Assembly: GCA_026389455.1 (NCBI GenBank)
Contig: JAPLHV010000020.1
Span: 16,447 to 80,446, forward strand
DNA from: Coprothermobacterota bacterium
GTDB taxonomy: Bacteria; Caldisericota; JANLFM01
Direction of reading: 5' to 3'
DNA length: 64,000 bases
Under the pieces are notes generated by a model. It worked only from the letters and a program-made list of their open reading frames with translations, did not search any database and was not told the DNA's origin. The translations under genes were made by a program, and so were the position numbers. This document shows, piece by piece, positions 11,613 through 43,822 of the stretch; the first letter of the stretch is position 1; each line of letters starts with the position of its first letter.

Positions 11613-11737
11613 GGACTCGCTGCCGCGGGCTGATTACTATGCTGCCGCGGGCTGATTACTATGCTGCCGCGGGCTGATTACTATGCTGCCGCGGGCTGAT
11701 TACTATGCTGCCGCGGGCTGATTACTACGCTGCCGCG
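11613..11737 (+). repeat. Core-family array (CGCGGG variant), 22-bp period, 5 units plus a partial core
   Basis: GGACTC-(GCTGCCGCGGGCTGATTACTAT)x5 (the last unit ends ...TAC), then GCTGCCGCG. It begins 2 nt after the BON gene stop. Confidence 0.92.
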
Positions 11738-11745
11738 CATAGTGA

Positions 11746-11841
11746 GGGGACAGATTGAATCAGTATGGGGACAGATTTCAAATCTGTCCCCATACTGGAA
11801 GAATGTCCCCATACTGAATGAAGAGAGAGCGGAATCTGTCC
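11746..11841. repeat. Composite palindromic module: perfect 33-nt palindrome (11763-11795) nested in further GGACAGATT / AATCTGTCC and CAGTATGGGGA / TCCCCATACTG half-sites
   Basis: GTATGGGGACAGATTT-C-AAATCTGTCCCCATAC. There is an upstream GGGGACAGATTGAATCAGTAT, a downstream direct repeat TGTCCCCATACTG x2 (11786-11798 and 11804-11816), and AATCTGTCC again at 11833-11841. Confidence 0.88.
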
Positions 11842-11889
11842 AAATGCTGCGATTTGGCGAGGGAGAAGGGGGAGTGTTACCATCAATGG

Positions 11890-13197: not shown

Positions 13198-13312
13198 GGA
13201 CACCCTGCCGGGGGCTGTCAAGATGCCGGGGGCTGTCAAGATGCCGGGGGCTGTCAAGATGCCGGGGGCTGTCAAGATGCCGGGGGCTGTCAAGATGCCG
13301 GGGGCTGGTTAC
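13198..13312 (+). repeat. Core-family array, 18-bp period, 5 units plus a terminal core (GCCGGGGGCTGTCAAGAT)
   Basis: GGACACCCT-(GCCGGGGGCTGTCAAGAT)x5-GCCGGGGGCT-GGTTAC, between the purB stop and the conserved argS body. Confidence 0.93.
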
Positions 13313-17281: not shown

Positions 17282-18426
17282 AGCGTGGCAGTCAGCCCGC
17301 GGCAGCGTGGTATTTAATGGCGGAGCGCCTTTCCTGGCCGGCCGTGGTGAGCGTGGTGGGGACCGGACGAGGTTCCGGGAAGACGACTGTGGCCAACGTC
17401 TTGCTGGAGGCGGGGCTACAGAACAAGAAGAGACTCGGCGTGATCCCGGCAGGAAAAGGGGGGCATGCTACCCCACTGCGTCTGCCCAAGGATACCTTGG
17501 TGGCGCTGGCTAAGAACTGTGAGCTGACACACCACCTGGAGTTGCGCGAGGAGTTGGAGGCCAACACTCCCTGGGGCGAAGTGTTGATCGGGAGGGTTCG
17601 GCAAGCGAGCGAGGCTGTCATCGCCGGCCCGGTTACATTGAACGATACGATTGTCGCTGCGCAGCGCTTGATTGCCGAAGGGGCCGAACTGGTGGTGGTA
17701 GATGGCTCCTTGGGTCGCTTATCGGCGAGCGATTCACACCTTGCCCAGCGCTACATTCTGGCGATGGGCGCCGACCCTGTCGACCGCTGGGCTCGAAAGG
17801 AGCAGTTGGAGCGTTTTCACACCATCACTCTAATGCCCAAGGGCCATTGGGAAATTCCCTCTCCGTCAGACCCTCGAAAACGAGGGCAGCCTGCCTTTTG
17901 GAATAAAGACCGCTGGATTCCGATCCCTGAACTTAACCCGGGACTCCCTGCCGGGGGCTACCAAGCTGCCGCGTCCTATCAAGCTGGACAAGCCCCCGGC
18001 AGGGAGTCCTATCTAGCTGGACAAGCCCCCGGCAGGGAGTCCTATCAAGCTGGACAAGCCCCCGGCAGGGAGTCCTATCAAGCTGGACAAGCCCCCGGCA
18101 GGGAGTCCTATCAAGCTGCCGATCTTGCAACTGCGGAGGCGCTCTACTGGCCCGGCGCTTTCACCGATCGAGCGACTCGTCTGTTAGACCGCTTTCCGTC
18201 TCCCCTGGCTCTGTTGCTGGATCAACCTTGGCATCTTCTCGCCAGCCAGGAGCGCTGGCAAGCGCTCTGGCGGGGAGGATGGTCATTCTTCGCACGGGAG
18301 AAAGCAACCTTAGCCTGGGTAGCTGTTAACCCACGTGCGTTGGATGGGCATTTAGAGAGCCCTGAGAGGTTGCTGGAGGAAGCGCGGATCGCTTTCCAGA
18401 CAGTGGAGTGCCGGCAACTGCAGTGA
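17278..18426 (+). CDS. P-loop NTPase-like protein, possible aminomutase accessory factor; carries an in-frame 33-bp x4 repeat insertion
   Basis: Walker-A-like VGTGRGSGKTT. It lies between kamA and the MutS-like gene. Repeat-encoded (YQAGQAPGRES)x4 at aa 234-277. Confidence 0.45.
   Translation: MKRGSQPAAAWYLMAERLSWPAVVSVVGTGRGSGKTTVANVLLEAGLQNKKRLGVIPAGKGGHATPLRLPKDTLVALAKNCELTHHLELREELEANTPWGEVLIGRVRQASEAVIAGPVTLNDTIVAAQRLIAEGAELVVVDGSLGRLSASDSHLAQRYILAMGADPVDRWARKEQLERFHTITLMPKGHWEIPSPSDPRKRGQPAFWNKDRWIPIPELNPGLPAGGYQAAASYQAGQAPGRESYLAGQAPGRESYQAGQAPGRESYQAGQAPGRESYQAADLATAEALYWPGAFTDRATRLLDRFPSPLALLLDQPWHLLASQERWQALWRGGWSFFAREKATLAWVAVNPRALDGHLESPERLLEEARIAFQTVECRQLQ
17941..18121. repeat. 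Composite: one forward element (17941-17959) facing four reverse 33-bp units (17977-18108) plus a partial
   Basis: GGACTCCCTGCCGGGGGCT ... (TATCAAGCTGGACAAGCCCCCGGCAGGGAGTCC)x4 (unit 2 has TATCTAG) ... TATCAAGCTGCCG. The forward copy is the exact reverse complement of the last 19 nt of each unit. Confidence 0.92.
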
Positions 18427-20166: not shown

Positions 20167-21801
20167 TTGCCAATGAGACTGCCGATTCCCACTGAACAAG
20201 TACGCCATTGCCGGCAACTGGCCGCCTCCATCGCGGGGGGAGTGCAAGATGAGATCAGCCCACTCTCCACCGTCTCGGTTGAGCGTTCTCTCCTGCGTTT
20301 GGTCGGCATCGAGGGCAGCAATCAAGAGAGTGTGCCGTTGGTGAATTGTTTCATCGATCAGCTCACCGGGCAGCGAGTCTTGGAGGACGGTGCGCTCTAT
20401 TGGTTAAGCAACGCCATCTTGGCCACGGGGGAAACGCCCCAAGGCATCGCCGAACGCGTGGGCGCAAGGTCGCTTGACCTTGTGCGGCTGCCTCGCCAAC
20501 CTCGGCGAGCGATTGAAAACCACTGCCGAGGGATCGTTCAGGATGCCTTGGTCACTCTCTTAGGCAAACGGCGCCGGCGGCGCGAGATGGAGGAAAGCTT
20601 AGCCCGAACCACGTCCCCATGGCTGTATGTGATCGTCGCCACCGGAAACATTTACGACGACATCGAACAGGCCAAGGCAGCCGCAGAACAGGGCGCCGAT
20701 GCTGTGGCGGTAATCCGCTCTACAGCTCAGAGCTTGCTGGACTATGTCCCCGAAGGGATTACCACCGAGGGGTTCGGCGGCACTTACGCCACTGGAGCAA
20801 ACTTCCGCTTGATGCGAGGCGCCTTGGACGAGGCTTCCCGTCAATCCAATCGCTATGTCCGCCAGGTCAACTATTGCTCTGGCCTTTGCATGGCCGAAAT
20901 CGCCGCTTTGGGAGTTCTGGAAGGTTTAGACATCCTCGTCAATGACGCTCTCTACGGGATTCTCTTTCGTGACTTGAACATGATTCGCACCATGGTTGAT
21001 CAGCATTTTTCGCGCTACTTGTTGGGCCTTTTCGATACAACCATCGTCACTGGCGAGGACAACCTGATCAAGACCATCGATGCGTTCGAGGAATATCCAA
21101 TCGTGCTTGTCTCCCAGTTTATCAACGAGCAATTGGCCAAGAATGCCGGGATGCGTGAGGAACGGATCGGCCTGGGTCATGCTGCCGAGTTGGACCCTGC
21201 GCTAGAGGACAGTTTTCTCAAGGAGCTGGTTCAAGCGCAATTGGTGCGACAGCTTTTTCCCCGCTCACCGGTCAAATTCATGCCTCCTACCCGTTACAAG
21301 AGCGGGAACATTTTCTTCGCTCACGTCTTGGATACACTTTTCAACTTGGTAGCTGTTTGGACCGATCAGGCGATCGTCCTTTTAGGGATGCCGACCGAAG
21401 CGATTCATACTCCCTATGTGCAAGACCGCTACCTGAGCTTGGAGTCTGCCTTGCACGTTCGTCGCGCGGCCGGCTCGTTGGGGCAGGAAGTGCGACTTAA
21501 ACCAAATGGCCAAGGCGCCGCCCGCGCCTGCTGGCTTCTGGCTAGAACCGAGGAATCTCTTACCCGAATTGCCGAGGAGGGGTTGTGGAACTCCCTGGCC
21601 AGCGGCGCCTTCTCTGCCATCAAACGCGCCAGGAGGGGCGGGAGAGGCTATGATGGCGTCTTCCGCAAAGGGCACTTCTATTTGAACCCCTTCCTCGACC
21701 GCGAGGTGGTGCGGAGAGCCAGAAGAAAGGTGGCGCAGAACACCCTGCCGGGGGCTATCGAGCTGCCGGGGGCTATCGAGCTGCCGGGGGCTGTAGTGTG
21801 A
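20167..21801 (+). CDS. kamD: D-lysine (beta-lysine) 5,6-aminomutase alpha subunit
   Basis: 544-aa ORF immediately upstream of and overlapping the B12-binding beta subunit, of KamD-family size, in the kam cluster. The C-terminal tail NTLPGAIELPGAIELPGAVV is repeat-encoded. Confidence 0.82.
   Translation: MPMRLPIPTEQVRHCRQLAASIAGGVQDEISPLSTVSVERSLLRLVGIEGSNQESVPLVNCFIDQLTGQRVLEDGALYWLSNAILATGETPQGIAERVGARSLDLVRLPRQPRRAIENHCRGIVQDALVTLLGKRRRRREMEESLARTTSPWLYVIVATGNIYDDIEQAKAAAEQGADAVAVIRSTAQSLLDYVPEGITTEGFGGTYATGANFRLMRGALDEASRQSNRYVRQVNYCSGLCMAEIAALGVLEGLDILVNDALYGILFRDLNMIRTMVDQHFSRYLLGLFDTTIVTGEDNLIKTIDAFEEYPIVLVSQFINEQLAKNAGMREERIGLGHAAELDPALEDSFLKELVQAQLVRQLFPRSPVKFMPPTRYKSGNIFFAHVLDTLFNLVAVWTDQAIVLLGMPTEAIHTPYVQDRYLSLESALHVRRAAGSLGQEVRLKPNGQGAARACWLLARTEESLTRIAEEGLWNSLASGAFSAIKRARRGGRGYDGVFRKGHFYLNPFLDREVVRRARRKVAQNTLPGAIELPGAIELPGAVV
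21737..21797 (+). repeat. Core-family array, 18-bp period, 3 cores (CTGCCGGGGGCTATCGAG)
   Basis: AGAACACC-CTGCCGGGGGCTATCGAG-CTGCCGGGGGCTATCGAG-CTGCCGGGGGCT-GTAGTG; it ends at the kamD stop/kamE start. Confidence 0.92.
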
Positions 21802-22541
21802 GCGAAGAGCGGCCATTCATCCGTCCCTACGGTGACCGCCTCAATGATGGCGCCGTGCAATTGTCCTTTAGTCTTCCCATCTCTCTCTCCGCCAGGAGCC
21901 GGGAAGCTGCCAAGTCCATCGCTGGTCGCCTGGGGTTGGAACAGATCCGCTTGGTCTCTGCTCTCGACCTGGGGAACGGCTTCTCTTTTTACATCCTTTA
22001 CGGCGCGACCACGGTGGAAATCGATGACCAGGCTATCCATCTCACCGAGGTGGAACGGCCTTTATTGGATTTCTGGCGTATCAACCAGTTGTTGGAGTTT
22101 GAGTTGAAGAAACGGGTGACGGTGGTTGGCGCCACCATTGGAACTGATGCCCACACCGTTGGCCTGGACGCTATCCTCAACGCCAAAGGCTTCGGCGGGG
22201 AATCCGGTCTGGAGAGGTATCCTCAGTTCCGGGTGGTGAACCTAGGAGCTCAGGCGCCTCCGGATGAGGTTCTGGAAGCGGCTCGGGAACAGCGTGCCGA
22301 TGTTGTCCTCGTTTCGCAAGTGGTTACCCAAAGAAATGCCCATCTGGAGAATCTCTCTCTTCTCGCCGAGATGCTCGAGGCGGAGGGACTACGGCAGGAT
22401 CTTCTCTTGATCTGCGGAGGACCCTACATCGATAGCCAGGTCGCACTGGAGGTCGGCTTTGACGCCGCCTTCGGGCCAGGCACGACGCCGCTGGCGGTGG
22501 CCAGTCTAATCGTCGAAGAGCTCCTGCGGAAAGCCCAATGA
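21798..22541 (+). CDS. kamE: D-lysine (beta-lysine) 5,6-aminomutase beta subunit (B12-binding)
   Basis: Cobalamin-binding DxHxxG motif (GTDAHTVGLD). The GTG start overlaps the kamD stop (GTGTGA). Confidence 0.85.
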   Translation: MSEERPFIRPYGDRLNDGAVQLSFSLPISLSARSREAAKSIAGRLGLEQIRLVSALDLGNGFSFYILYGATTVEIDDQAIHLTEVERPLLDFWRINQLLEFELKKRVTVVGATIGTDAHTVGLDAILNAKGFGGESGLERYPQFRVVNLGAQAPPDEVLEAAREQRADVVLVSQVVTQRNAHLENLSLLAEMLEAEGLRQDLLLICGGPYIDSQVALEVGFDAAFGPGTTPLAVASLIVEELLRKAQ

Positions 22542-24301
22542 GCAAACTGATCTTTATCACCGGGGGGGTTGTCTCTGGGATCGGCAAGGGGATCCTGGCC
22601 GCTTCCATCGGCGCCCTGATTAAGGGGCGAGGGTATCGGGCGAGCATGATCAAGTGCGACCCGTACCTGAACGTGGACACAGAACACGCTGCCGCGGGCT
22701 TTCTAGCTGCCGCGGGCTTTCTAGCTGCCGCGGGCTTTCTAGCTGCCGCGGGCTTTCTAGCTGCCGCGGGCTTTCTAGCTGCCGCGGGCTTTCTAGCTAG
22801 CTGCCGCGGGCTTTCTAGCTGCCGCCCCTACCAGCATGGAGAAGTTTTCGTGTTGAAAGATGGCGCCGAAACAGACCTCGACTTGAGCCACGATGAGCGT
22901 TTCATCGATGAGGATCTGGACCAGTTGGCCAATGTCGCCTCAGGCCGGATCTACTCGGCTGTGATCGCCAAAGAACGGCGAGGCGAGTATTTGGGAGCCA
23001 CGGTGCAGTTGATTCCGCACGTGACCAACGAGATCATGGATGCCATCAAGGGCGCCCTCGAACATTCCAAAGCGGAAATATTGGTGGTGGAGATCGGCGG
23101 CACGGTGGGCGACATCGAAGGGCTCCCCTTCCTGGAGGCCATCCGCCAACTGCGTCGCAGCTTTCCGCCGGAAGATCTTCTCTACGTCCACACCACCCTC
23201 GTGCCATTCCTGGAAACCACACAAGAGGCAAAGACGAAACCGACCCGGCGCTCTGTCGCCGAGTTGCGCAGTATCGGCATCCAACCGAATGTTGTCGTTT
23301 GTCGATCGCGACGAGCGATTTCCCGTAAGCTGTGGGAGAAAGTGGCTCTCTTCTGCGACGTCGATCAAGAGCAGGTGATCTCTCTACCCGACTTGAACTC
23401 TATTTACCGGGTTCCTCTTTTTTTGCAGCGGGAGGGTTTCTCCGCCATCTTGGACCGTTTCCTCGGCGAAAGGCGTACTGCAGATCTGGCAATGTGGGAA
23501 CGGCTGGAACGTATCCTAGAGAGCCCGCATCCGCAGCTCCGCGTCGGCGTGGTGGGCAATTGCGTAGGGATGCGCGACACTTACATCTCGGTCAACGAAG
23601 CCCTGAAGCATGCTTCAATGGAAGAAAAGTTGGATCTCCAGTTGGTATGGGCGCCCTCAGAGAAGTTGACCTCCGGTCGGGTACGGGAGGGGAAGGACCT
23701 CTCTGGAATACTCGGCGAGCTGGATGGGATTGTAGTGCCGGGCGGTTTCGACCCCAGGGGGGTGGAAGGGAAAATCGCAGCAGTAGAATACGCTCGTTGC
23801 CAAGGTGTCCCGTATTTTGGCCTTTGCCTGGGATTACAGTGCGCGGTTATCGAATTCGCTCGCCACGTCTGCGGCTTAGAGGCGGCTAACAGCACGGAAT
23901 TCGATCCTCTCACCCCCTACCCAGTCATCGACCTTATGGCAAATCAACGCGGCTTGGAGGCCAAGGGCGGCGCCATGCGTCTAGGAGCATACCCGTGCGC
24001 TGTGCAAGAGGGTAGCGAGGCGTGGCGAGCCTTTGGCCAAGATATCGTCTGGGAGCGTCATCGCCACCGTTACGAATTGAACAATGAGTATCTTCACCTC
24101 TTGGAACAAGGAGGGTTGGTTGTCTCCGGACGATACGAAGAACTGGGCTTGGCCGAAATCATTGAACTTCCTGGACATCCATGGTTTCTTGGCACACAGT
24201 TTCACCCAGAGTTGACTTCACGACCAGGAAAACCGAATCCACTGTTTCACCAATTTATCAGAGCTTGCGCGAGGAGAGCTAGTTTTCGATGGAAAAACTG
24301 A
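22538..24301 (+). CDS. pyrG: CTP synthase, divergent, with a 147-nt repeat-derived in-frame insertion
   Basis: N-terminal FITGGVVSGIGKG, VEIGGTVGDIE, GATase GLCLGLQ and HRHRYE. The insertion at 22679-22825 replaces the expected GTMS segment. Confidence 0.85.
   Translation: MSKLIFITGGVVSGIGKGILAASIGALIKGRGYRASMIKCDPYLNVDTEHAAAGFLAAAGFLAAAGFLAAAGFLAAAGFLAAAGFLASCRGLSSCRPYQHGEVFVLKDGAETDLDLSHDERFIDEDLDQLANVASGRIYSAVIAKERRGEYLGATVQLIPHVTNEIMDAIKGALEHSKAEILVVEIGGTVGDIEGLPFLEAIRQLRRSFPPEDLLYVHTTLVPFLETTQEAKTKPTRRSVAELRSIGIQPNVVVCRSRRAISRKLWEKVALFCDVDQEQVISLPDLNSIYRVPLFLQREGFSAILDRFLGERRTADLAMWERLERILESPHPQLRVGVVGNCVGMRDTYISVNEALKHASMEEKLDLQLVWAPSEKLTSGRVREGKDLSGILGELDGIVVPGGFDPRGVEGKIAAVEYARCQGVPYFGLCLGLQCAVIEFARHVCGLEAANSTEFDPLTPYPVIDLMANQRGLEAKGGAMRLGAYPCAVQEGSEAWRAFGQDIVWERHRHRYELNNEYLHLLEQGGLVVSGRYEELGLAEIIELPGHPWFLGTQFHPELTSRPGKPNPLFHQFIRACARRASFRWKN
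22681..22825 (+). repeat. Core-family array (CGCGGG variant), 18-bp period, 7 units plus a 4-nt slip plus a partial core, inside pyrG
   Basis: AGAACAC-(GCTGCCGCGGGCTTTCTA)x6-GCTA-GCTGCCGCGGGCTTTCTA-GCTGCCGC. Confidence 0.93.
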
Positions 24302-25137: not shown

Positions 25138-25821
25138 ATGACTTTCAGCAACTATCAAGAAATGGTTTTGGGTACATTTTTAAACGAGCTCTCCTCCCGT
25201 GCGGCGACACCCGGCGGAGGAGCGGCTGCCGGCTTGGTTGCTGCCATGGGCGCCAGCCTTGGGGCGATGGCGGCGGCGCTCAGTCAGGGAATCCGTCATT
25301 CAAGACGCGCTGTCGCAGGCTGTTCTGTGGCAGGTAAGAACACGCTGCCGCGGGCTATAATGAAGGAATTGGAGGAACGTTTTTTAGAGAGCCGCGACCG
25401 TTGTTTGTTCTTTGCCGACCAGGATTCAGCCGCCTTCCAGCATTGGATGGCAGCCACTCGGATGTCTTATGAAGATCCGGCTGCTCGGGAGGAAGCCCTC
25501 CGAGCGGCGATGGAGGGGGCTTGCCGCCCGCCGATGGCTTTGGGAGAGGAGGTTTCCGGCCTGCAAGACGCGCTGGCGACCCTGCAAGAACACGGCAACG
25601 TTCGCGTCCTCAGCGATGTCGGAGCCGCCCTTGCCCTCTTGACTGCCGCCTTAGAGATTTCAATTCTCAACCTCCGAATCAATCAACAAGGGATTACTGA
25701 TCCTTATTTTCTAGGACGACTTATTCAATCAGTCGCATCGTTCGATCGTGCCTGTGCGGTGATGCGAGAATGGGAATCACAAATAAGGGCACGATTAGAA
25801 GGAGAAGCGTGGAATGAATGA
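25138..25821 (+). CDS. Cyclodeaminase/cyclohydrolase family protein (FTCD C-terminal-like)
   Basis: N-terminal FLNELSSRAATPGGGAAAGLVAAMGASLGAMAA. It contains a single repeat element (encoding ...GKNTLPRAIM...). Confidence 0.75.
   Translation: MTFSNYQEMVLGTFLNELSSRAATPGGGAAAGLVAAMGASLGAMAAALSQGIRHSRRAVAGCSVAGKNTLPRAIMKELEERFLESRDRCLFFADQDSAAFQHWMAATRMSYEDPAAREEALRAAMEGACRPPMALGEEVSGLQDALATLQEHGNVRVLSDVGAALALLTAALEISILNLRINQQGITDPYFLGRLIQSVASFDRACAVMREWESQIRARLEGEAWNE
25309..25362. repeat. Single element (25337-25362, forward) with an imperfect inverted partner (25309-25327)
   Basis: GCTGTCGCAGGCTGTTCTG ... AGAACACGCTGCCGCGGGCTATAATG. Confidence 0.8.
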
Positions 25822-37484: not shown

Positions 37485-37931
37485 ATGGAGAAAAAGACCC
37501 TGAATTCGATAGAGATCCGCGCCCAGCCTATGCTTTTGAAGGCAGGTTATAGGCTGTTGGAGGCGATCATCGTGGGCAAGCGAGAGCCGGTCGTACATTT
37601 GGTCATCTTTTCCCCGGAAGGGATCTCTCTGGATGACTGTAAACGGGTCTCGCGTCTGCTCGGCAATGAGCTAGACGATCTATTTCCCGCCCGCTATCGT
37701 TTGGAGGTCTCCTCTCCAGGGCTTGAGCGGGAGATCAAAGACCCGGAGGAGTTGACCCTTTTTCGCGGGCGCGAGGCTCAGATCCGTCTTAACCAGAAGA
37801 TCGAGGGAGAAGATCTTTACACTGGAATCCTGGAGGGCGTAGAAGGCGAATCGCTGCTCCTGGAGGTCGATGGACGGCAACGGGCTTTGCCCATCCCTCT
37901 GATCGTGAAAGCTCGATTGGTCTACCGTTGA
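37485..37931 (+). CDS. rimP: Ribosome maturation factor RimP
   Basis: RimP signature LEVSSPGLEREIK; located upstream of nusA. Confidence 0.88.
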   Translation: MEKKTLNSIEIRAQPMLLKAGYRLLEAIIVGKREPVVHLVIFSPEGISLDDCKRVSRLLGNELDDLFPARYRLEVSSPGLEREIKDPEELTLFRGREAQIRLNQKIEGEDLYTGILEGVEGESLLLEVDGRQRALPIPLIVKARLVYR

Positions 37932-37945
37932 GGGGGGAGGCTATT

Positions 37946-38977
37946 GTGTCAAAAGAGTTGATCATCGCCCTCGAACAGATCGAGAGAGAGAAGGGGATCA
38001 GCAAGGAGTCCTTGGTTGAGGCTATCGAAGTAGCGCTCACCACTGCCTATAGAAAAGATTACGGAGCTAGTCAGAACGTCCTCGTTGATCTCAATGTGAA
38101 GACTGGTGAGATTCACGTCTTCGCTCAAAAAGATGTCGTTGAACTGGTAGAGAACAAGTTCGCCTCTATTTCTTTGGAGGAAGCCCATCAAATCGTGCCG
38201 GAAGCTCAATTGGGCGATATCATCAAGCAAGAGATTACACCCAAGGACTTTGGCCGATTGGCCGCGCAGACAGCAAAACAGGTCGTATTTCAGAAGATCA
38301 AAGAAGCCGAGCGGGAAGCGGCTTTCCAAGAATTCCTAGATAAAGAGGGAGAGATGCTGATGGGAGTGATCCGGCGTCGCGAGGGAACTACCATATTCAT
38401 TGACTTGGGGAGAGCTGAGGCAGTCCTCATGCAAAAGGAACAGGTTCCAGGCGAGCGCTACGAGATCAATGGACATTACCGCATCTATCTCTCCTCCGTG
38501 CAGCAATCCAAGCGGGGACCGGAATTATTCGTCTCGCGGGCTCACCCTAACCTGGTACTCCGGCTCTTTGAGTTGGAAGTCCCGGAAATCTATGAGGGAC
38601 GCGTTGAGATCAAGAGTATCGCCCGCGAACCAGGGATGCGTTCAAAGGTAGCTGTCAGCTCTCGAGAGGAGAAGATCGACCCGGTTGGCGCCTGCGTCGG
38701 CCCGAAAGGGGTGCGTATTCAAGCAATCGTCCGAGAGCTGCGAGGGGAACGTATCGACATCATCCGCTATTCCAAGGATTCCCAGGAGTTTATCGCCAAT
38801 GCTCTCAGCCCGGCCAAGATTACCCGCGTTCAATTGGATGAGAAGGCCAGGACGGCGAAAGTCTGGGTCGCGCCTGACCAGCTTTCCCTGGCCATCGGTA
38901 AAGAAGGGCAGAACGCCCGCTTGGCCGCCAAGCTAACCAACTGGAAGATCGACATCCAATCCGAGGGGGTTAAATGA
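37946..38977 (+). CDS. nusA: Transcription termination/antitermination factor NusA
   Basis: N-terminus [20 protein letters not shown], an S1 domain, and KH domains with [12 protein letters not shown] and [15 protein letters not shown] start after the GGGGGAGG RBS. Confidence 0.93.
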
Positions 38978-39276
38978 GTACGCATCTACCTCTGCGAACA
39001 TGTTCGGGTTGTGGCGGGGTTTTCGTCAAAAGAGATCTCCTGCGCATCGCTCGTTCCCCGCAAGGCGACCTATCTCTCGACTTGGCAGGAAAGAAGCCCG
39101 GCCGTGGTTTTTATCTCTGCCGCCGGCAACTATGCTTGGAGCGTGCGCTGAAGAACAGGAACTTTGAAAAGAAGATCGGAACTCGTCTCCCTGAAGAGCT
39201 CCTGATGCAGTTGCGAGAGTCCATTAAGAACGGACAGGAGGTTGAACCGTGCCGAAGAAACGAATCTATGAATTAG
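38974..39276 (+). CDS. ylxR: YlxR/DUF448 family RNA-binding protein
   Basis: [18 protein letters not shown] and GRGFYLC motifs; located between nusA and infB. Confidence 0.85.
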
Positions 39277-41201
39277 CCAAGGAGTTGAACATCTCCAGCA
39301 CTCAGTTGCTGTCCATTCTTAAGGAGCTTGGGGTGGAGGTGAAGACCCACGCCTCGACGATTGAAGATGAGATGGCCAAGTTGGTGCAGGATATCTTGGC
39401 CGAACGCCCCGTACAGCTTGAATCGCAGCCGATCAGCGAGGTGAACGCAACCCAGGTGATGGCTGCCCCGATCATCCCTGCCTCTGTAGGGGATTTCGCC
39501 AAGCTCTACCACCTCGAACCAGCCCAGGTAGCCGAATACCTCCGGAAGAAGGGCGAGATGGTGACCGTCACGCAGCCACTCAGCCAAAAGGGCAAAGAGC
39601 TGTTAAAAGCATTGGTTCCCAGCGCTGGGCCGCTGCCGGCCACAGCAAGCTCCGGCATGGAATCCAGTGGCCCGGGGTTGCCGGAGTCGCGCAGCAAGCT
39701 TTCGCCTCTGCCCTCGAGCGAAACGAAGGATTGGGTCGGCAGAGCGCCCGTCGTCACTGTATTGGGTCATGTAGACCATGGAAAGACCACCCTTCTGGAC
39801 GCGATCCGTCATTCCTCGGTGGCGGAGAAGGAAAAAGGCGGGATCACCCAAAAGATCGGCGCTTCGGAAGTCCTGTTCAAAGGTCAGCGCATCGTTTTTA
39901 TCGATACTCCCGGGCACGAAGCCTTCACCGCCATGCGCGCCCAGGGTGCCAAGGTGACTGATATCGCCGTTCTGGTCGTAGCGGCCGACGAAGGGGTCAT
40001 GCCCCAGACGGTGGAAGCTCTCAATCACGCCAAGGCCGCCAAGGTTTCCATCATCGTTGCTTTGAACAAGATGGACAAGGAAGGGGCGAATCCCGACCGG
40101 GTCAAACAACAGCTCTCGGACCTTGGCCTGGCGCCTGAAGAATGGGGAGGTGAAACGATATTCGTACAGCTCTCAGCCAAGAAAGGAGAGGGAGTCGAGA
40201 AGCTCCTGGAGATGATCTCGCTTTTGGCCGAGGTGCAAGAATTGAAGACTTTCCCCAATGTCGCTGCTTTTGGAACAGTGATCGAAGCCAGGTTGGACAG
40301 AGGTCTGGGGCCGGTAGCGGCTGTCATCGTACAAGGAGGCTTTCTTCGTGTCGGGGATATCCTGCAAGTAGGGGAGACCGGTGGAAAAGTACGTTCCATC
40401 ATCAACGCCATGGGAGAGCGTCTCAAGGAGGCCGGCCCCTCCACAGCGGTGGAAATCGTCGGCCTGGAAGCGGTTCCCCATCCTGGAGTGCGTTTCCAGA
40501 CGACCAAGGATCTGAAGTTGCAGCGCAATTTTGAGAGCATGCCGCAAGGAAAGGATTTCCGCTCCACTGATAGGCTTTTCAAGGCTTTTCAGAAGGAGAG
40601 CAATAAGTTTCCACTGGTCCTTAAAGCTGATTCCCAAGGCACGCTGGATGCCCTGCTGGTAGCCATCAGCAAGGTAAAATCGACCGAGATGGTAATCGAG
40701 ACAATGCATTCCGGCGTGGGGGCGATTACGGAATCGGATATCGATCTAGCCTCGGTCACGGCTTCGATGGTGCTTGGCTTCAACGTACGGCCAGATCCCA
40801 TGGCAAAAAAGGCCAGTGAGCGCGAGGGCATCGAAATCCGCACCTATGATCTCATCTACGAGTTGGTAACTGACTTGGAGGGATGCATTCGCGGCCGTTG
40901 CGAGCCCCGCATCGAGGAGAAACCGATGGGGCGAGCGGTGATCCGTAAGCTCTTCAAGGTTCCCAAGCTGGGTTTCATTGCCGGCTCCTACATTCAGGAC
41001 GGCAAGGTGGAACGCAACTCCAAGGCTCGCATCGTGCGAGACAACATCGTAGTCGGTGAAACCAAGGTTACTTCCCTGCGACGCTTCAAAGAAGATGTCC
41101 GCGACGTGGCCGGCGGGTACGAATGCGGAATCGGTTTGGACAAAGCGACCGATCTCCGCGAAGGCGATCTGTTGGAATTCTACACCTTGCAGCAGGTATG
41201 A
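39249..41201 (+). CDS. infB: Translation initiation factor IF-2
   Basis: N-terminal [14 protein letters not shown] and G-domain motifs [20 protein letters not shown] and NKMD. Confidence 0.95.
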
Positions 41202-41273
41202 AGTGGTCGCTTGGGGCAGAGTCGAGCTGCTCATTCCCGGCAGCCGTTCCCCTAAAGACAAAGGACAGGTTCT

Positions 41274-41387
41274 TAGCCCCCGGCAGCTTGATAGCCCCCG
41301 GCAGCTTGATAGCCCCCGGCAGCTTGATAGCCCCCGGCAGCTTGATAGCCCCCGGCAGCTTGATAGCCCCCGGCAGGGTGTTACTGG
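41274..41387 (-). repeat. Core-family array, reverse orientation, 18-bp period, 5 units plus a terminal element
   Basis: (TAGCCCCCGGCAGCTTGA)x5-TAGCCCCCGGCAGGGTGTTACTGG. Confidence 0.93.
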
Positions 41388-41392
41388 CATGA

Positions 41393-41443
41393 TGGCGGAA
41401 AGAAGACATGCCGCCGCAGGCTGTTTAGATATGCTGCCGCAGG
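41393..41443. repeat. Two degenerate core-family copies (GCAGG variant)
   Basis: AGACATGCCGCCGCAGGCTGTTTAGAT and ATGCTGCCGCAGGGTGTTCTGTC. Confidence 0.75.
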
Positions 41444-41596
41444 GTGTTCTGTCAGCGCTTCAACGTTTCCCTCCACAAGGTTGGGGGGCAAGACAGCAGA
41501 CCTCCGGTCAGTTCGGGCAGCATTCCCGCATGGAAGCGGCCTGGGTGGGGACCAGCCAGACTGCGGTGGAGGAGACCTGCGCCGCATTGCTGTTAC

Positions 41597-41624
41597 TGAC
41601 CATGCTGCCGCAGGCTGGTAGTTG
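41597..41624 (+). repeat. Single core-family element (GCAGG variant)
   Basis: TGACCATGCTGCCGCAGGCTGGTAGTTG. Confidence 0.75.
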
Positions 41625-41675
41625 AAGGAAACCCCTTGATTCAGGTTCTATCTTCTACCTGCGAGGTTCTCTGAA

Positions 41676-42059
41676 ATGCGCCCCCTCCGCCGTCAGAAGA
41701 TGCAAGAGGCGATCCGCGAGTTGGTCTCCACAGTGATCCACCGAGAGTTGAAAGACCCGCGCGTGGGATTTACCACGATTACAAAAGTTGAGATGACTCC
41801 GGACGGACGGTCGGTGAAGGTCTTCTTCTCGGTGATGGGCGCCGCGGAGCAGGTACAGCAAACTATTGAAGGCCTGACAAAGGCGCAGGGCTTTCTCCAG
41901 AAGCGCGTTGCGGAGTACTTGCAGATGCGCTTCGCCCCTCGTTTGCAGATCGTATATGATGATTCCCTGGAAAAGGCGATGCAGGTTCAACAGCTCCTAA
42001 GACGATTAGAAGAGGAGAATGAGAGCCATCCTCCCGACCCCGCTAGCCCAGATCATTGA
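41676..42059 (+). CDS. rbfA: Ribosome-binding factor A
   Basis: RQKMQEAIRELVSTVIHRELKDPRVGFTTITKVEMTPDGRSVKVFFSV. Confidence 0.9.
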   Translation: MRPLRRQKMQEAIRELVSTVIHRELKDPRVGFTTITKVEMTPDGRSVKVFFSVMGAAEQVQQTIEGLTKAQGFLQKRVAEYLQMRFAPRLQIVYDDSLEKAMQVQQLLRRLEEENESHPPDPASPDH

Positions 42060-42966
42060 CCAATCTTCTTCTTTCCTCCTCGCCACTCATGAAGGGCCGG
42101 ACGGGGATGCCATCGGGAGCATGCTTGGCCTAGGCCACATTTTTCGCTCATGGGGCAAGGAAGTTTTCATTTACTCCCCCCACCCCCTCGAAGCAAAGTA
42201 TGACGCACTGGCAGCCGGCCTTCCCTCTCTCCACGCGCCGCCGGCCAACCCTGCTTCCTTCACTTTAGTCATTTTAGACGCCGGAGGCAGGGAGCGCGTC
42301 CCGCTTTCCCTGGAAGGATACAACAGGATGATATCGATTGATCATCATCCCTCGAACGATCTCCCTGGCGATTTCTCTTGGTGCGAGCCGAAAGCCTCCT
42401 CCACTGGGGAGATCCTGGCTTCTCTTTTCCTTGACGAACCGATCATTCCGCAACAAGCCTGCGCCTGTTTGTACTACGCCATCCTGGCTGACACCAATGG
42501 CTTCCAATTCCCCAATACCGGAGCTCGCACTCTGGAGCTGGCTGCCCGCCTGGTGAGCGAAGGCGCGCATCCCGACCAATTGGCCAACCTCTTCTTCAAT
42601 CGCTGGAGCGAACGCGACATTCATTATTTCGCTCTGGCCATGTCCTCTTTGGAGTTTCTGGAGGGAGTGGCTTGCGCTCGTTTGCCGGTCGAGAGCGGGG
42701 TAGGGGATGAGTACGACTCGGACATCCTGATGAACGAGTGGCGACGATGGCCCGATCCCATCGTCTATGCCCTTTTCAAGGAAACTGAACCGGAGCATTT
42801 CAAAGTTAGCTTGAGATCCCATGGGACGGTCGACGTCAGCCAGGTGGCGCGGCTTTTTCAAGGGGGAGGGCACGCCGCCGCCAGTGGCTGCCGACTGGAA
42901 GGCGACTACCGCCAGGTGCAGCAGCGTCTGTTGGAGGCGTTTCGGGAGTTGCTGAAAGATGCCTAG
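42019..42966 (+). CDS. nrnA: DHH-family phosphoesterase (NrnA-like oligoribonuclease/pAp phosphatase)
   Basis: DHH motifs HEGPDGDAIGS and SIDHHPSN, and the DHHA1 motif GGGHAAASG. Confidence 0.82.
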   Translation: MRAILPTPLAQIIDQSSSFLLATHEGPDGDAIGSMLGLGHIFRSWGKEVFIYSPHPLEAKYDALAAGLPSLHAPPANPASFTLVILDAGGRERVPLSLEGYNRMISIDHHPSNDLPGDFSWCEPKASSTGEILASLFLDEPIIPQQACACLYYAILADTNGFQFPNTGARTLELAARLVSEGAHPDQLANLFFNRWSERDIHYFALAMSSLEFLEGVACARLPVESGVGDEYDSDILMNEWRRWPDPIVYALFKETEPEHFKVSLRSHGTVDVSQVARLFQGGGHAAASGCRLEGDYRQVQQRLLEAFRELLKDA

Positions 42967-43822
42967 CGGATTTCTGAACCTCCTCAAGCCTCCCGGAATG
43001 ACTTCATTTGACATGATTCGCGCCTTGCGCGGAGGACAGCCCAAGCTCAAACTGGGGCACAGCGGAACGCTCGACCTGCCCGCCTGTGGGGTTCTTGTTG
43101 TAGCGGTGGAAAGAGCGACCAAATTTCTTCCGTACCTGCTCGCCGAGAAAGAGTATCTCTTCGAGGTGATCTTTGGTTTACAGACGGACACCGGCGACTT
43201 GTGGGGGGAAATCGTCAAGGATACAGGAGCAATAGTGGAACGAACCGTCGTGGAGGAAGCGCTGATTCGCTTCATCGGTGATCTGACGCAGGAGGTGCCG
43301 ATCTTCTCGGCCAAGCACCAAGATGGCAAGCGGCTGTACCAATTGGCCATGGCGGGACGGGGACCATCAGCGCAGAAGACGACCAAGATCCATGTCTACT
43401 CGCTGCGCTTCTTAGATTTATTACCAGGCGTCTATCCCCGGGTGCGCTTATTGCTGCGGTGCTCAGGCGGCACTTACGTACGAACTCTGGCCAAAGACAT
43501 CGGCGCAGCGCTCGGCTTGCCGGCCTGCGCCCGTTTCATTATCCGTTTACGATCCTCATGTTATCGCCTTGAAGAGAGCAGTACCCTTCGCGATCTGGAG
43601 AGTAGTCCATGGCCGCTTCTTCCGATCGAGTCGGCTCTCCAGCACTTGCCGTTGGAAGTGATTCCCGAGCGGGATCTGTCCTCCTTCATGAACGGAAGGG
43701 CCGTTTCCGCCTTGCTCCCCGGCACGGGCCAATTCTTCCGCGTCCAAGACCGCCGCGGGCACTTTATCGGATTGGGCAAGAGACAGGAGGAACGCTTCTT
43801 GACAGTGGAGTGCCTACCCTGA
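42959..43822 (+). CDS. truB: tRNA pseudouridine-55 synthase
   Basis: GFLNLLKPPGMTSFD and the catalytic GHSGTLDLPACGVL. Confidence 0.9.
   Translation: MPSGFLNLLKPPGMTSFDMIRALRGGQPKLKLGHSGTLDLPACGVLVVAVERATKFLPYLLAEKEYLFEVIFGLQTDTGDLWGEIVKDTGAIVERTVVEEALIRFIGDLTQEVPIFSAKHQDGKRLYQLAMAGRGPSAQKTTKIHVYSLRFLDLLPGVYPRVRLLLRCSGGTYVRTLAKDIGAALGLPACARFIIRLRSSCYRLEESSTLRDLESSPWPLLPIESALQHLPLEVIPERDLSSFMNGRAVSALLPGTGQFFRVQDRRGHFIGLGKRQEERFLTVECLP

Follow-up and report, generated by a model that had tools for sequence, protein, structure and literature searches.

In the nusA-infB operon of the Bacillus type, a small gene of the DUF503 family (ylxP, PF04456) lies between infB and rbfA, and the question raised by the present locus is whether the sequence that fills the same slot here is still a gene and, if not, what has happened to it. 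The window, meaning the whole 64,000-nucleotide stretch of DNA that was analysed, carries the operon order rimP-nusA-ylxR-infB-ylxP-rbfA-nrnA-truB, with the ylxP sequence in its ancestral place. The host is an uncultured lake-sediment bacterium, whose 2.63-Mb assembly is a 263-contig bin of 89% completeness. A preliminary description, made from the letters alone, had proposed that a GTG next to the infB stop opens a DUF503-like N-terminus and that the rest of the slot is a repeat-riddled and frameshifted remnant of the gene. Both proposals held. The infB stop occupies 41199-41201, the GTG at 41203 follows 1 nt later and opens VVAWGRVELLIPGSRSPKDKGQVL, and the DNA aligns unambiguously with the intact 92-aa ylxP genes that four related genomes carry in this position. 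With a probability of about 0.9, the interval 41203-41674 is a non-functional ylxP remnant, which received four small-repeat insertions in this lineage and has drifted neutrally since. The features on which this reading is built are given below.

39249-41201, plus strand: infB (IF2, 650 aa), from the ORF list, Pfam domains on identical proteins elsewhere and alignment with relatives
41203-41674, plus strand: ylxP (DUF503) pseudogene, from its alignment (A1, A11) with the intact genes of four relatives
41203-41625, plus strand: gene-caller-type open frame of 140 aa, from the ORF list and its translation
41203-41272, plus strand: native segment 1, frame 1, reads VVAWGRVELLIPGSRSPKDKGQV
41273-41380, plus strand: ins1, family A array, +108 nt (6 x 18), in frame, 36 codons
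41381-41406, plus strand: native segment 2, frame 1, with ..MMAERR.. against MMQRIRKH in relatives
41407-41452, minus strand: ins2, family A' doublet, +46 nt (2 x 23), shifts the frame by +1
41453-41496, plus strand: native segment 3, frame 2, reads RFNVSLHKVGGQD
41497-41513, plus strand: ins3, single family B unit, +17 nt, shifts by +2, back to frame 1
41514-41591, plus strand: native segment 4, frame 1, reads GQHSRMEAAWVGTSQTAVEETCAAL
41592-41613, minus strand: ins4, single family A' unit, +22 nt (..ACCATGCTGCCGCAGG..), shifts the frame by +1
41614-41674, plus strand: native segment 5, frame 2, EGNPLIQVLSSTCEVL and the native TGA stop
41676-42059, plus strand: rbfA (127 aa), intact, downstream, from the ORF list and PF02033 on an identical protein

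In the pseudogene, 279 native nucleotides, split into five pieces, alternate with 193 nt of inserted repeats. Alignment with the relatives (G001, G002, G003 and L040) placed the insertions and the frame changes: gaps of 108, 46, 17 and 22 nt appear at ins1 to ins4 and the rest is collinear. The four inserts are lineage-specific, and their sites are empty in the four related genomes. The SPRQLD x5 array with its terminal element, noticed earlier from the translation, was confirmed by Tandem Repeats Finder as an 18-nt array at 41274-41376 (5.7 copies, 100% matches). It consists of five copies of AGCCCCCGGCAGCTTGAT and a terminal hairpin unit, AGCCCCCGGCAGGGTGTT, reads SPRQLD five times and then SPRQ in frame 1, and carries the complete CCC-GGCA-GGG hairpin in the last of its six units only, a count that is taken from this assembly, every independent contig breaking inside the array. 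The remaining inventory of repeats stood in part. The two degenerate copies reported downstream of the array proved to be a 23-nt doublet, found by the same program at 41404-41448 with copies 86% alike and with its hairpin (GCC-TGC-GGCA-GCA-TGT) reading on the minus strand, and the last copy lies at about 41592-41613, whereas ins3 had been missed; it belongs to a second family and its unit, GACCTCCGGTCAGTTCG, was matched at 41499-41515.

The native segments 1-5 lie in frames 1, 1, 2, 1 and 2, which makes three frame changes. As had been suggested, RFNVSLHKVGGQD is readable in the +1 frame only (about 41453-41496); this segment is the most conserved DUF503 motif (FNVS..E), here degraded and out of frame with the start codon. 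Because three of the four inserts are not multiples of three, neither this motif nor the C-terminus can be translated from the start codon. After ins4, frame 1 stops at 41623-41625, so that the open frame already ends at 41625, and the native TGA lies at 41672-41674. The 140-aa frame is thus a mixture of native pieces, repeat-encoded peptide and out-of-frame sequence, a shortened version of which appears in a JGI metagenome as a predicted protein of 78 aa. Removal of the array alone did not restore a single frame. On the pseudogene reading, no product is expected in which FNVSLHKVGGQD is joined in frame to the N-terminus.

The profile search by frame, which had been proposed as a check, agrees with this picture. 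Frame 1 gave a sub-threshold N-terminal match to PF04456 of 11.3 bits, confined to profile positions 1-24 and already reached by segment 1 alone, against a Pfam gathering threshold of 22.4 bits; the other frames at the locus gave no match. The insert-free reading scored 59.3 bits and covered positions 1-86 of the 88 in the profile, as compared with 94.8 bits for the G001 orthologue. In segment 1, the conserved SLKDKR is degraded to SPKDKG. By position and collinearity, the slot is best regarded as a DUF503 member by descent and not as a functional gene: it occupies the same place between infB and rbfA as the functional ylxP of the Bacillus-type operon but, unlike functional DUF503 genes, encodes the domain in no single frame, has both SLKDKR and FNVS..E degraded and evolves neutrally. 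The only solved DUF503 relative is TT1725 of Thermus thermophilus (PDB 1J27). In the 89%-complete assembly, tblastn found the ylxP slot in two frames and nowhere else, and the PF04456 search yielded nothing above the cut-off, with one spurious 12-bit match on contig C63. Of 40 related genomes that were searched, 4 also lack DUF503, so that, with this genome included, an intact copy is missing in 5 of 41. Since it is missing in other related genomes, ylxP is counted as dispensable.

The substitution pattern of the native pieces describes a gene released from constraint. Among the lineage-unique codon changes in ylxP, 3 are synonymous and 15 nonsynonymous, including changes inside SLKDKR, as compared with synonymous to nonsynonymous ratios of 31:8 in infB, 5:4 in rbfA and 10:4 in nrnA (Fisher p = 1.7e-5). 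The lineage-specific substitutions are spread flatly over the codon positions (9/71, 14/80 and 7/56, or 13, 18 and 13%); the corresponding figures for the G002 ylxP are 8/70, 0/66 and 12/61. Window-specific divergence reaches 37/250 (14.8%) in ylxP, against 66/407 (16.2%) at the third positions of infB. The ylxP sequence has therefore been without purifying selection for roughly the whole lineage-specific branch, and the gene is dead, not dying. The dating of this decay is approximate, because the region is a recombination mosaic, the rbfA of L040 being the closest to that of the window and its infB lying nearer to those of G001 and G003. The preliminary description, in which the gene was being destroyed by insertions of one family, is right in that repeat insertions break the gene; the gene, however, is dead and no longer in the course of destruction, and one of the inserts is of family B. 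The inserts also differ in apparent age. Drift in the surrounding DNA amounts to about 15%; the 23-nt doublet shows a similar divergence, and the 18-nt array none at all. Since the remnant has drifted for the whole branch and the array is 100% homogeneous, at least the expansion of the array is younger than the death of the gene. A phase-variable contingency locus was also considered and rejected: the 18-nt period is divisible by three, it is three other inserts, all of them fixed, that break the frame, and the sequence is without constraint.

Two other explanations would deny that a gene has been interrupted and lost. The interruptions might be assembly artefacts, collapsed or chimeric joins at repeats in a metagenome bin, and it is true that the genome is a bin of many contigs and that short-read assemblers do break at the array. 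However, 14 Logan contigs and one JGI contig are identical or near-identical over both array junctions and over ins2-ins4: ten Logan contigs are identical over 41354-41690, ins2 included, four more over 41185-41303, and the JGI contig shows the same inserts with 2 SNPs; L042 differs by 2 SNPs in ins2. The run accessions fall in several series; runs with the locus were ERR11260126, 129, 130, 134, 138, 142, 146 and 150, ERR15302175, 230, 233 and 237, SRR20698650 and SRR12594517. Moreover, ins2-ins4 are shorter than a read and are set in unique flanking sequence, and an artefact can be dismissed for practical purposes. It is very improbable, too, that the locus still yields a working protein, either as an insert-tolerant 140-aa YlxP variant or by programmed frameshifting. 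Frame 1 is indeed open for 140 codons, the start codon and the 1-nt spacing from the infB stop are retained, and the +46 and +17 inserts together add 63 nt, a sum divisible by three that leaves 58 native residues in frame. Yet such a sum has a prior of 1 in 3, and for the frame to stay open, a stop had to be avoided in no more than about 60 effectively independent codons of non-native origin, the chance of which is about 1 in 10. The FNVS..E motif and the last 20 residues remain out of frame, frame 1 by itself stays below the profile cut-off, codon-position bias is absent with 15 of the 18 unique codon changes nonsynonymous, and neither a slippery site nor a stimulatory RNA was detected at the locus.

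The order of events is a closer matter. An ordinary lesion, for instance a point mutation such as L17P or R21G in SLKDKR, or a lost need for the protein may have killed ylxP first, the repeats having accumulated later in a slot that acted as a sink; this is a plausible alternative, at somewhat less than even odds. It is favoured by the contrast between a remnant that has been neutral for about the whole branch and an 18-nt array without a single mismatch, by the loss of DUF503 in other lineages of the phylum with no repeats involved, and by the distribution of the repeats: 42% of the repeat loci lie in the 13% of DNA outside crude coding sequence, an enrichment of about 3-fold, and the loci are clustered, with fourteen 480-nt spans holding at least 4 loci against a Poisson expectation of about 0.2. 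On the other side, the A' doublet, 86% self-identical, is about as diverged as the neutral DNA around it and could be as old as the inactivation. The +46, +17 and +22 inserts are none of them multiples of three and each would shift the frame alone, and repeats also land in live genes, as shown by the CTP synthase gene, with 132 inserted nucleotides, and by the nrnA-like gene of G001, with 17. No intermediate allele with some of the inserts only was found in a metagenome scan with a degenerate 44-mer, which returned one G002-like contig with intact ylxP, or in a protein search, which yielded a single strain variant whose inserts are the same, together with two orthologues that are intact. The earlier suggestion that the repeats are mutagenic is thus half borne out: three inserts are of a length that would shift the frame, and the gene may have been killed by one of these or may have been dead when all of them arrived.

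That the repeats are mobile, as had also been proposed, is borne out: the inserts come from genome-wide families and the same sites are empty in relatives, so units do get inserted into new places. The core of family A, AGCCCCCGGCAG, was counted 837 times in the genome (2.63 Mb), whereas about 4 occurrences of the 11-mer GCCCCCGGCAG are expected from base composition, which excludes chance. The same core is present 69, 86 and 219 times in three genomes of the genus and 0-5 times each in 37 others of the phylum. For family B, the core count is 86 in this genome and 29, 5 and 34 in the other genomes of the genus, with a background level elsewhere. Both families are genus-restricted and greatly expanded in this genome, in which 1684 cores make up 833 loci with units of 17, 18, 22 and 23 nt. 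Family B is represented by 10 exact 17-mers and also forms 17-nt tandem arrays, and the insert in the nrnA-like gene of G001 is the same 17-mer. The 18-nt-period tandem arrays are polar (420 adjacent pairs), and the terminal units show no strong bias with respect to the crude gene strand (108 sense, 144 antisense). Two other filled-versus-empty sites lie in the window, at 13199-13308 and, within the CTP synthase gene, at 22683-22823. Most inserts comprise an integral number of units (108, 108, 46, 22, 17 and 17 nt); the CTP synthase insert is in frame and does not. At the five filled-versus-empty sites, neither terminal inverted repeats nor a target-site duplication were visible, and no target motif was consistent across them, the microhomologies CAG, ACAT, TGCTG and AGTT being too short to judge.

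The events at the locus are accordingly four separate insertions into the 279-nt ylxP, namely a family A array, a doublet and a singleton of the sister family A', and one unit of family B, which is unrelated to these. The operon is presumably still transcribed across the slot, since no terminator was found there; the slot also gave no Rfam match and no promoter-like site. The rbfA gene is presumably served by its own ribosome-binding site, a GAGG at 41661-41664 inside native segment 5, and the 140-codon junk frame may still be translated via coupling to infB. The mostly whole-unit insert lengths, the lack of target duplications and terminal inverted repeats, and the empty sites in relatives would suit copy-in elements. 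Families A and A' have as their conserved feature a hairpin with a 3-bp stem and a GGCA loop, the stem of which is complementary in three subfamilies: CCC/GGG is found in 247 copies, TGC/GCA in 138 and CGC/GCG in 29, each mismatched combination in at most 4. Folded as single strands, the units reach -1.8 to -2.6 kcal/mol and have no advantage over shuffles, so the case for the hairpin is made by covariation. The conserved loop and the complementary stems favour, as the most likely route, recognition of the small hairpin in single-stranded DNA, for example by a Y1 (IS200/RAYT-type) transposase. An array would then consist of 5' half-units with a single complete hairpin as its cap, and could conceivably grow by slippage or re-insertion. 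A search for Y1_Tnp (PF01797) gave 13 matches in this genome at E up to 0.01, of which ten exceed the Pfam cut-off; four long Y1_Tnp proteins are encoded at C153:2654-3361, C112:3378-4349, C25:889-1842 and C101:3300-4154. None of the Y1 transposase genes was found with family A units on its flanks, loose proximity on C112 and C148 being the most that was seen, and the one clear RAYT-like ORF, on C153, has inverted GGGGACAGATT on either side and not family A. Self-propagation of the units through the GGCA-loop hairpin and its three compensatory stem variants, by an undescribed, structure-guided single-strand copy-in that possibly uses a domesticated Y1 transposase, is put forward tentatively, at slightly below an even chance.

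Several known repeat systems resemble these families in part. Elhai and colleagues are said to have described small dispersed repeats (SDR) of Nostocaceae, of about 20 nt and in hundreds of copies. The units of about 20 nt, the high copy number, the presence or absence at orthologous sites and the occurrence both in and between genes are all reportedly shared with SDR, as are the frequent stacking side by side and the lack of a known transposase. Unlike SDR, the present families belong to a different phylum, so homology to SDR1-8 is not expected, and their units also grow into polar tandem arrays with the full hairpin in the last unit only. To our knowledge, elements this small are hardly documented outside cyanobacteria. 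MITEs and the Correia/NEMIS, ERIC, BOX and RUP elements are about 100-200 bp long and have terminal inverted repeats and target-site duplications. The present units are likewise small non-coding repeats in or next to genes that differ in presence between strains, but they measure 17-23 nt and such terminal features are not visible at the five sites. REP sequences and REPINs are mobilised by RAYT (Y1) transposases, and tandem REP arrays have been described (Bertels and Rainey, 2011; PMC3116915). The present families are similarly short, abundant and lineage-specific, with a small hairpin showing compensatory stem changes, in a genome that encodes Y1_Tnp proteins, and family B also occurs as inverted doublets within a longer palindrome. 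In contrast to REP, which is extragenic, 485 of the 833 loci (58%) have both flanks in crude ORFs, and inserts are found in CTP synthase, nrnA-like and ylxP genes; family A also differs in its stem of only 3 bp, in the lack of inverted doublets and in having no Y1 gene flanked by it.

Summarizing, the pseudogene itself is ordinary, ylxP being small and lost in other lineages of the phylum as well. The locus is, however, a clean natural experiment, in which a 279-nt ancestral gene with empty sites in four relatives has received four inserts of three repeat types. It offers a base-by-base view of one insertion event, a whole number of 17-23-nt units entering with no target duplication, and the divergence of the doublet against that of the array provides a relative time scale; such loci are the raw material for working out the mechanism. 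For annotation, it means that gene callers in this genus will report junk ORFs, as well as repeat-encoded peptide insertions in real enzymes. Should the units prove truly self-propagating, few mobile DNA units known to us would be smaller.

The window carries an operon of the Bacillus type in which a 474-nt stretch, the ylxP slot, separates infB from rbfA. The window is contig C238 in a metagenome bin of 2.63 Mb (263 contigs, 89% complete), whose closest named relative, G001, was deposited as Coprothermobacterota bacterium from Lake Pavin sediment.

Operon genes in the window (ORF list)
37485-37931, rimP
37928-38977, nusA
38974-39276, ylxR
39249-41201, infB
between infB and rbfA, the 474-nt ylxP slot
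41676-42059, rbfA
42019-42966, nrnA-like gene (DHH/DHHA1)
42959-43822, truB
3' of truB, ribF

At the ylxP-rbfA junction (41672-41690), a 9-nt deletion relative to G001 and the two other same-genus genomes, G002 and G003, shifts the rbfA start, and RbfA begins with MRPLRRQK in the window and with MVSPLRREK in G001. The rbfA ATG lies 1 nt past the ylxP stop, a junction common to the window and L040, a fourth intact ylxP orthologue.

The slot is occupied by an old ylxP pseudogene bearing four lineage-specific inserts of three repeat types. In DNA alignment, positions 41180-41700 are collinear with G001, G002 and G003 apart from four gaps in the relatives, and the same holds for L040.

Inserts in the ylxP remnant
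41273-41380, ins1, 108 nt
41407-41452, ins2, 46 nt
41497-41513, ins3, 17 nt
41592-41613, ins4, 22 nt

Together the five native pieces measure exactly 279 nt, as does the intact gene, and the last of them closes with the native TGA stop (41672-41674). The 108 nt of ins1 are divisible by three, as is the sum of ins2 and ins3 (46 + 17 = 63), so the pieces lie in frames 1, 1, 2, 1 and 2. Translation from the GTG would therefore yield the N-terminus, the repeat-encoded peptide and a short native stretch, run out of frame at the FNVS position, and then read native GQHSRMEAAWVGTSQTAVEETCAAL before terminating at 41623-41625, upstream of the native C-terminus. Every element of the preliminary description is confirmed: the GTG at 41203, one base past the infB stop, which begins VVAWGRVELLIPGSRSPKDKGQVL; the 18-nt array (41274-41376, 5.7 copies, 100% identity) reading SPRQLD five times; two further degenerate copies, which form a 23-nt doublet at 41404-41448; the DUF503-like stretch RFNVSLHKVGGQD, readable in the next frame only; and another copy near 41600. 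The 17-nt ins3 and the resulting return to frame 1 had been overlooked.

The earlier assignment of the slot to a DUF503 remnant is borne out by profile searches as well as by the collinearity. Frame 1 alone scored 11.3 bits, under the 22.4-bit DUF503 threshold, and the other frames of the slot gave no match; after removal of the four inserts, the score rose to 59.3 bits and the match spanned positions 1-86 of the 88-position profile, compared with 94.8 bits for the G001 protein. Of 40 related genomes, 36 have an intact DUF503 gene, the three same-genus genomes among them; the 89%-complete assembly of the window's genome gave none above threshold. With G001 YlxP as the tblastn query, two frames of the slot were the only matches in the assembly.

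The inserts are no assembly artefact. Ten Logan contigs with an identical RbfA agree base for base with 41354-41690, ins2 to ins4 included, four more with an identical IF2 agree with 41185-41303 (the left junction), and a JGI contig shares the inserts, differing by two SNPs that both fall within ins2. The array copy number of six cores comes from the window's assembly only, as every independent contig stops within the 18-nt array. No intermediate ylxP allele was found by metagenome scan and protein search.

Three measures agree that ylxP has been free of constraint for about as long as the window's lineage has been separate. Of the codon changes found in one lineage only, those in the window's ylxP are 3 synonymous and 15 nonsynonymous, among them L17P within the SLKDKR motif and the replacement of R21 (SLKDKR to SPKDKG), whereas the intact G002 gene has 10 and 5 (conservative). 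The flanking genes of the window have synonymous to nonsynonymous counts of 31:8 (infB), 5:4 (rbfA) and 10:4 (nrnA-like), a ratio from which ylxP differs (Fisher p = 1.7e-5). With sites up to 4 nt from an insert excluded, substitutions at codon positions 1, 2 and 3 were 9/71, 14/80 and 7/56 in the window, compared with 8/70, 0/66 and 12/61 in G002. Across the whole remnant, 37/250 sites (14.8%) diverge in the window alone, close to the 66/407 (16.2%) at infB third positions. As the region is a recombination mosaic, the decay can be dated only approximately. The relationship of L040 (ENA ERZ27297509 k141_3764542) to window positions 39720-43150 varies along the operon: it is nearest the window in rbfA and the ylxP 3' end (12/127 third-position differences), but in infB it lies nearer G001/G003 (about 60/493, compared with 98/493 for the window), a pattern suggestive of recombination among species of the genus in this operon.

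The preliminary description had proposed a gene being destroyed or remodelled by insertion of these elements, an interpretation that is supported overall. Lineage-specific inserts do break the frame; however, the gene is by now an old, unconstrained pseudogene, and the odds are roughly even between an insertion that killed ylxP and inserts gathered after its death. Three of the four inserts would each have sufficed to break the frame, and the doublet, whose 23-nt copies are 86% alike, is about as diverged as the surrounding neutral DNA and could thus date back to the inactivation. The expansion of the perfectly homogeneous 18-nt array must be recent. A death from another cause followed by the collection of inserts fits equally well: DUF503 has also been lost in other lineages of the phylum without such repeats, and repeat loci cluster in a manner compatible with a dead gene gathering inserts. 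Spans of 480 nt with at least four repeat loci number 14 against about 0.2 expected (Poisson model, non-coding DNA), so that the stacking of units seen in the ylxP slot is a general habit. The genome holds 1684 cores in 833 loci; both flanks are coding (crude ORF call) at 58% of loci, whereas 87% of the DNA is coding, so the repeats are depleted in genes, though far from excluded.

Ins1 belongs to family A, whose core AGCCCCCGGCAG has 837 copies in the window's genome, 69, 86 and 219 in the same-genus genomes and 0-5 per genome in 37 others of the phylum; for the 11-mer GCCCCCGGCAG, about 4 occurrences are expected in the window's genome by base composition. Neighbouring cores are spaced by 18 nt in 420/493 cases. 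Internal units have the form AGCCCCCGGCAG-CT(N)GAY and arrays end in AGCCCCCGGCAG-GGTGTTCTG, the terminal units fitting GCC-xxx-GGCA-yyy-TGT (e.g. 41364-41381, 13199-13216, 25330-25350). Complementary triplets prevail genome-wide (CCC/GGG 247, TGC/GCA 138, CGC/GCG 29 copies), with at most 4 copies of each mismatched combination. This covariation marks the 3-bp stem and its GGCA loop as the conserved feature; the predicted hairpin stability of the units is not above that of shuffled sequence. As internal units have no 3' arm, an array consists of half-units with a single complete hairpin at its end. Family A', the '(AC)ATGCTGCCGCAGGC' unit of ins2 and ins4, is the TGC/GCA variant on the opposite strand. 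Ins3 represents the distinct family B (unit GACCTCCGGTCA(G/A)(T/C)TCG(G)), with 86 core copies in the window's genome, 29, 5 and 34 in the three others of the genus and background numbers elsewhere, arranged as 17-nt tandem arrays and inverted pairs. Its cores are often flanked by inverted GGGGACAGATTT arms, giving long palindromes. The ins3 17-mer GACCTCCGGTCAGTTCG is also present as an insertion just short of the 3' end of the G001 nrnA-like gene (L006/L024, G001:C16; columns 1284-1300 of DNA alignment A3), altering the C-terminus from ..RELLKDA* to ..RELTSGQFG*, and is absent from this gene in the window, G002 and G003.

Further sites with the same behaviour as the ylxP slot, window and relatives compared
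13199-13308, array of 108 nt, not present in G001 or G003
22683-22823, family A array of 132 nt within the CTP synthase gene, in frame, not present in G001 or G003
21745-21792, family A array common to the window and G003 (one more unit in G003), absent in G001
11619-11737, 22-nt array, 5.4 units in the window, 2 in G001 and G003
17973-18118, 33-nt-period array, 4.4 copies in the window, one or two degenerate units only in G001 and G003

Insert lengths are mostly whole multiples of the unit (108, 108, 46, 22, 17, 17), the 132 nt in CTP synthase being the exception, and neither target duplication nor terminal inverted repeats were seen at the filled and empty sites compared. The array at 21745-21792 is an example of copy-number change and decay following a shared insertion; its G003 counterpart (L034, G003:C176) has point changes in two units, CTGCCGGGAGCT and CTGCCGCGGGCT. 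In the CTP synthase ORF (pyrG-like, 587 aa, 22538-24301), the conserved ..NVDAGTMSPYQHGE.. loop, uninterrupted in G001 and G003, is replaced by TEH(AAAGFL)x6ASCRGLSSCR. Beside the 22-nt array, a further insert of some 120 nt (11738-11851) consists of GGGGACAGATT-type palindromes and is absent in G001 and G003.

The covarying hairpin, the insertion of whole units, the lack of target duplication and the Y1_Tnp matches in the genome (13 at E up to 0.01, ten exceeding the Pfam cut-off) together suggest that units may enter by a single-strand route of IS200/RAYT type that recognises the hairpin (PMC3116915). Against such a route for family A, the single clear RAYT-like arrangement, a Y1 transposase ORF of 236 aa outside the window (G000:C153:2654-3361), is flanked by inverted GGGGACAGATT, a third repeat of about 412 genome copies distinct from family A, and no Y1 gene in the genome is flanked by family A. 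In their behaviour, the repeats find their closest described parallel in the small dispersed repeats of Nostocaceae (Elhai et al. 2008, as cited in PMC3116915). The loss of ylxP as such is ordinary; the locus is a good specimen as a record of the entry of very small repeat units into DNA.
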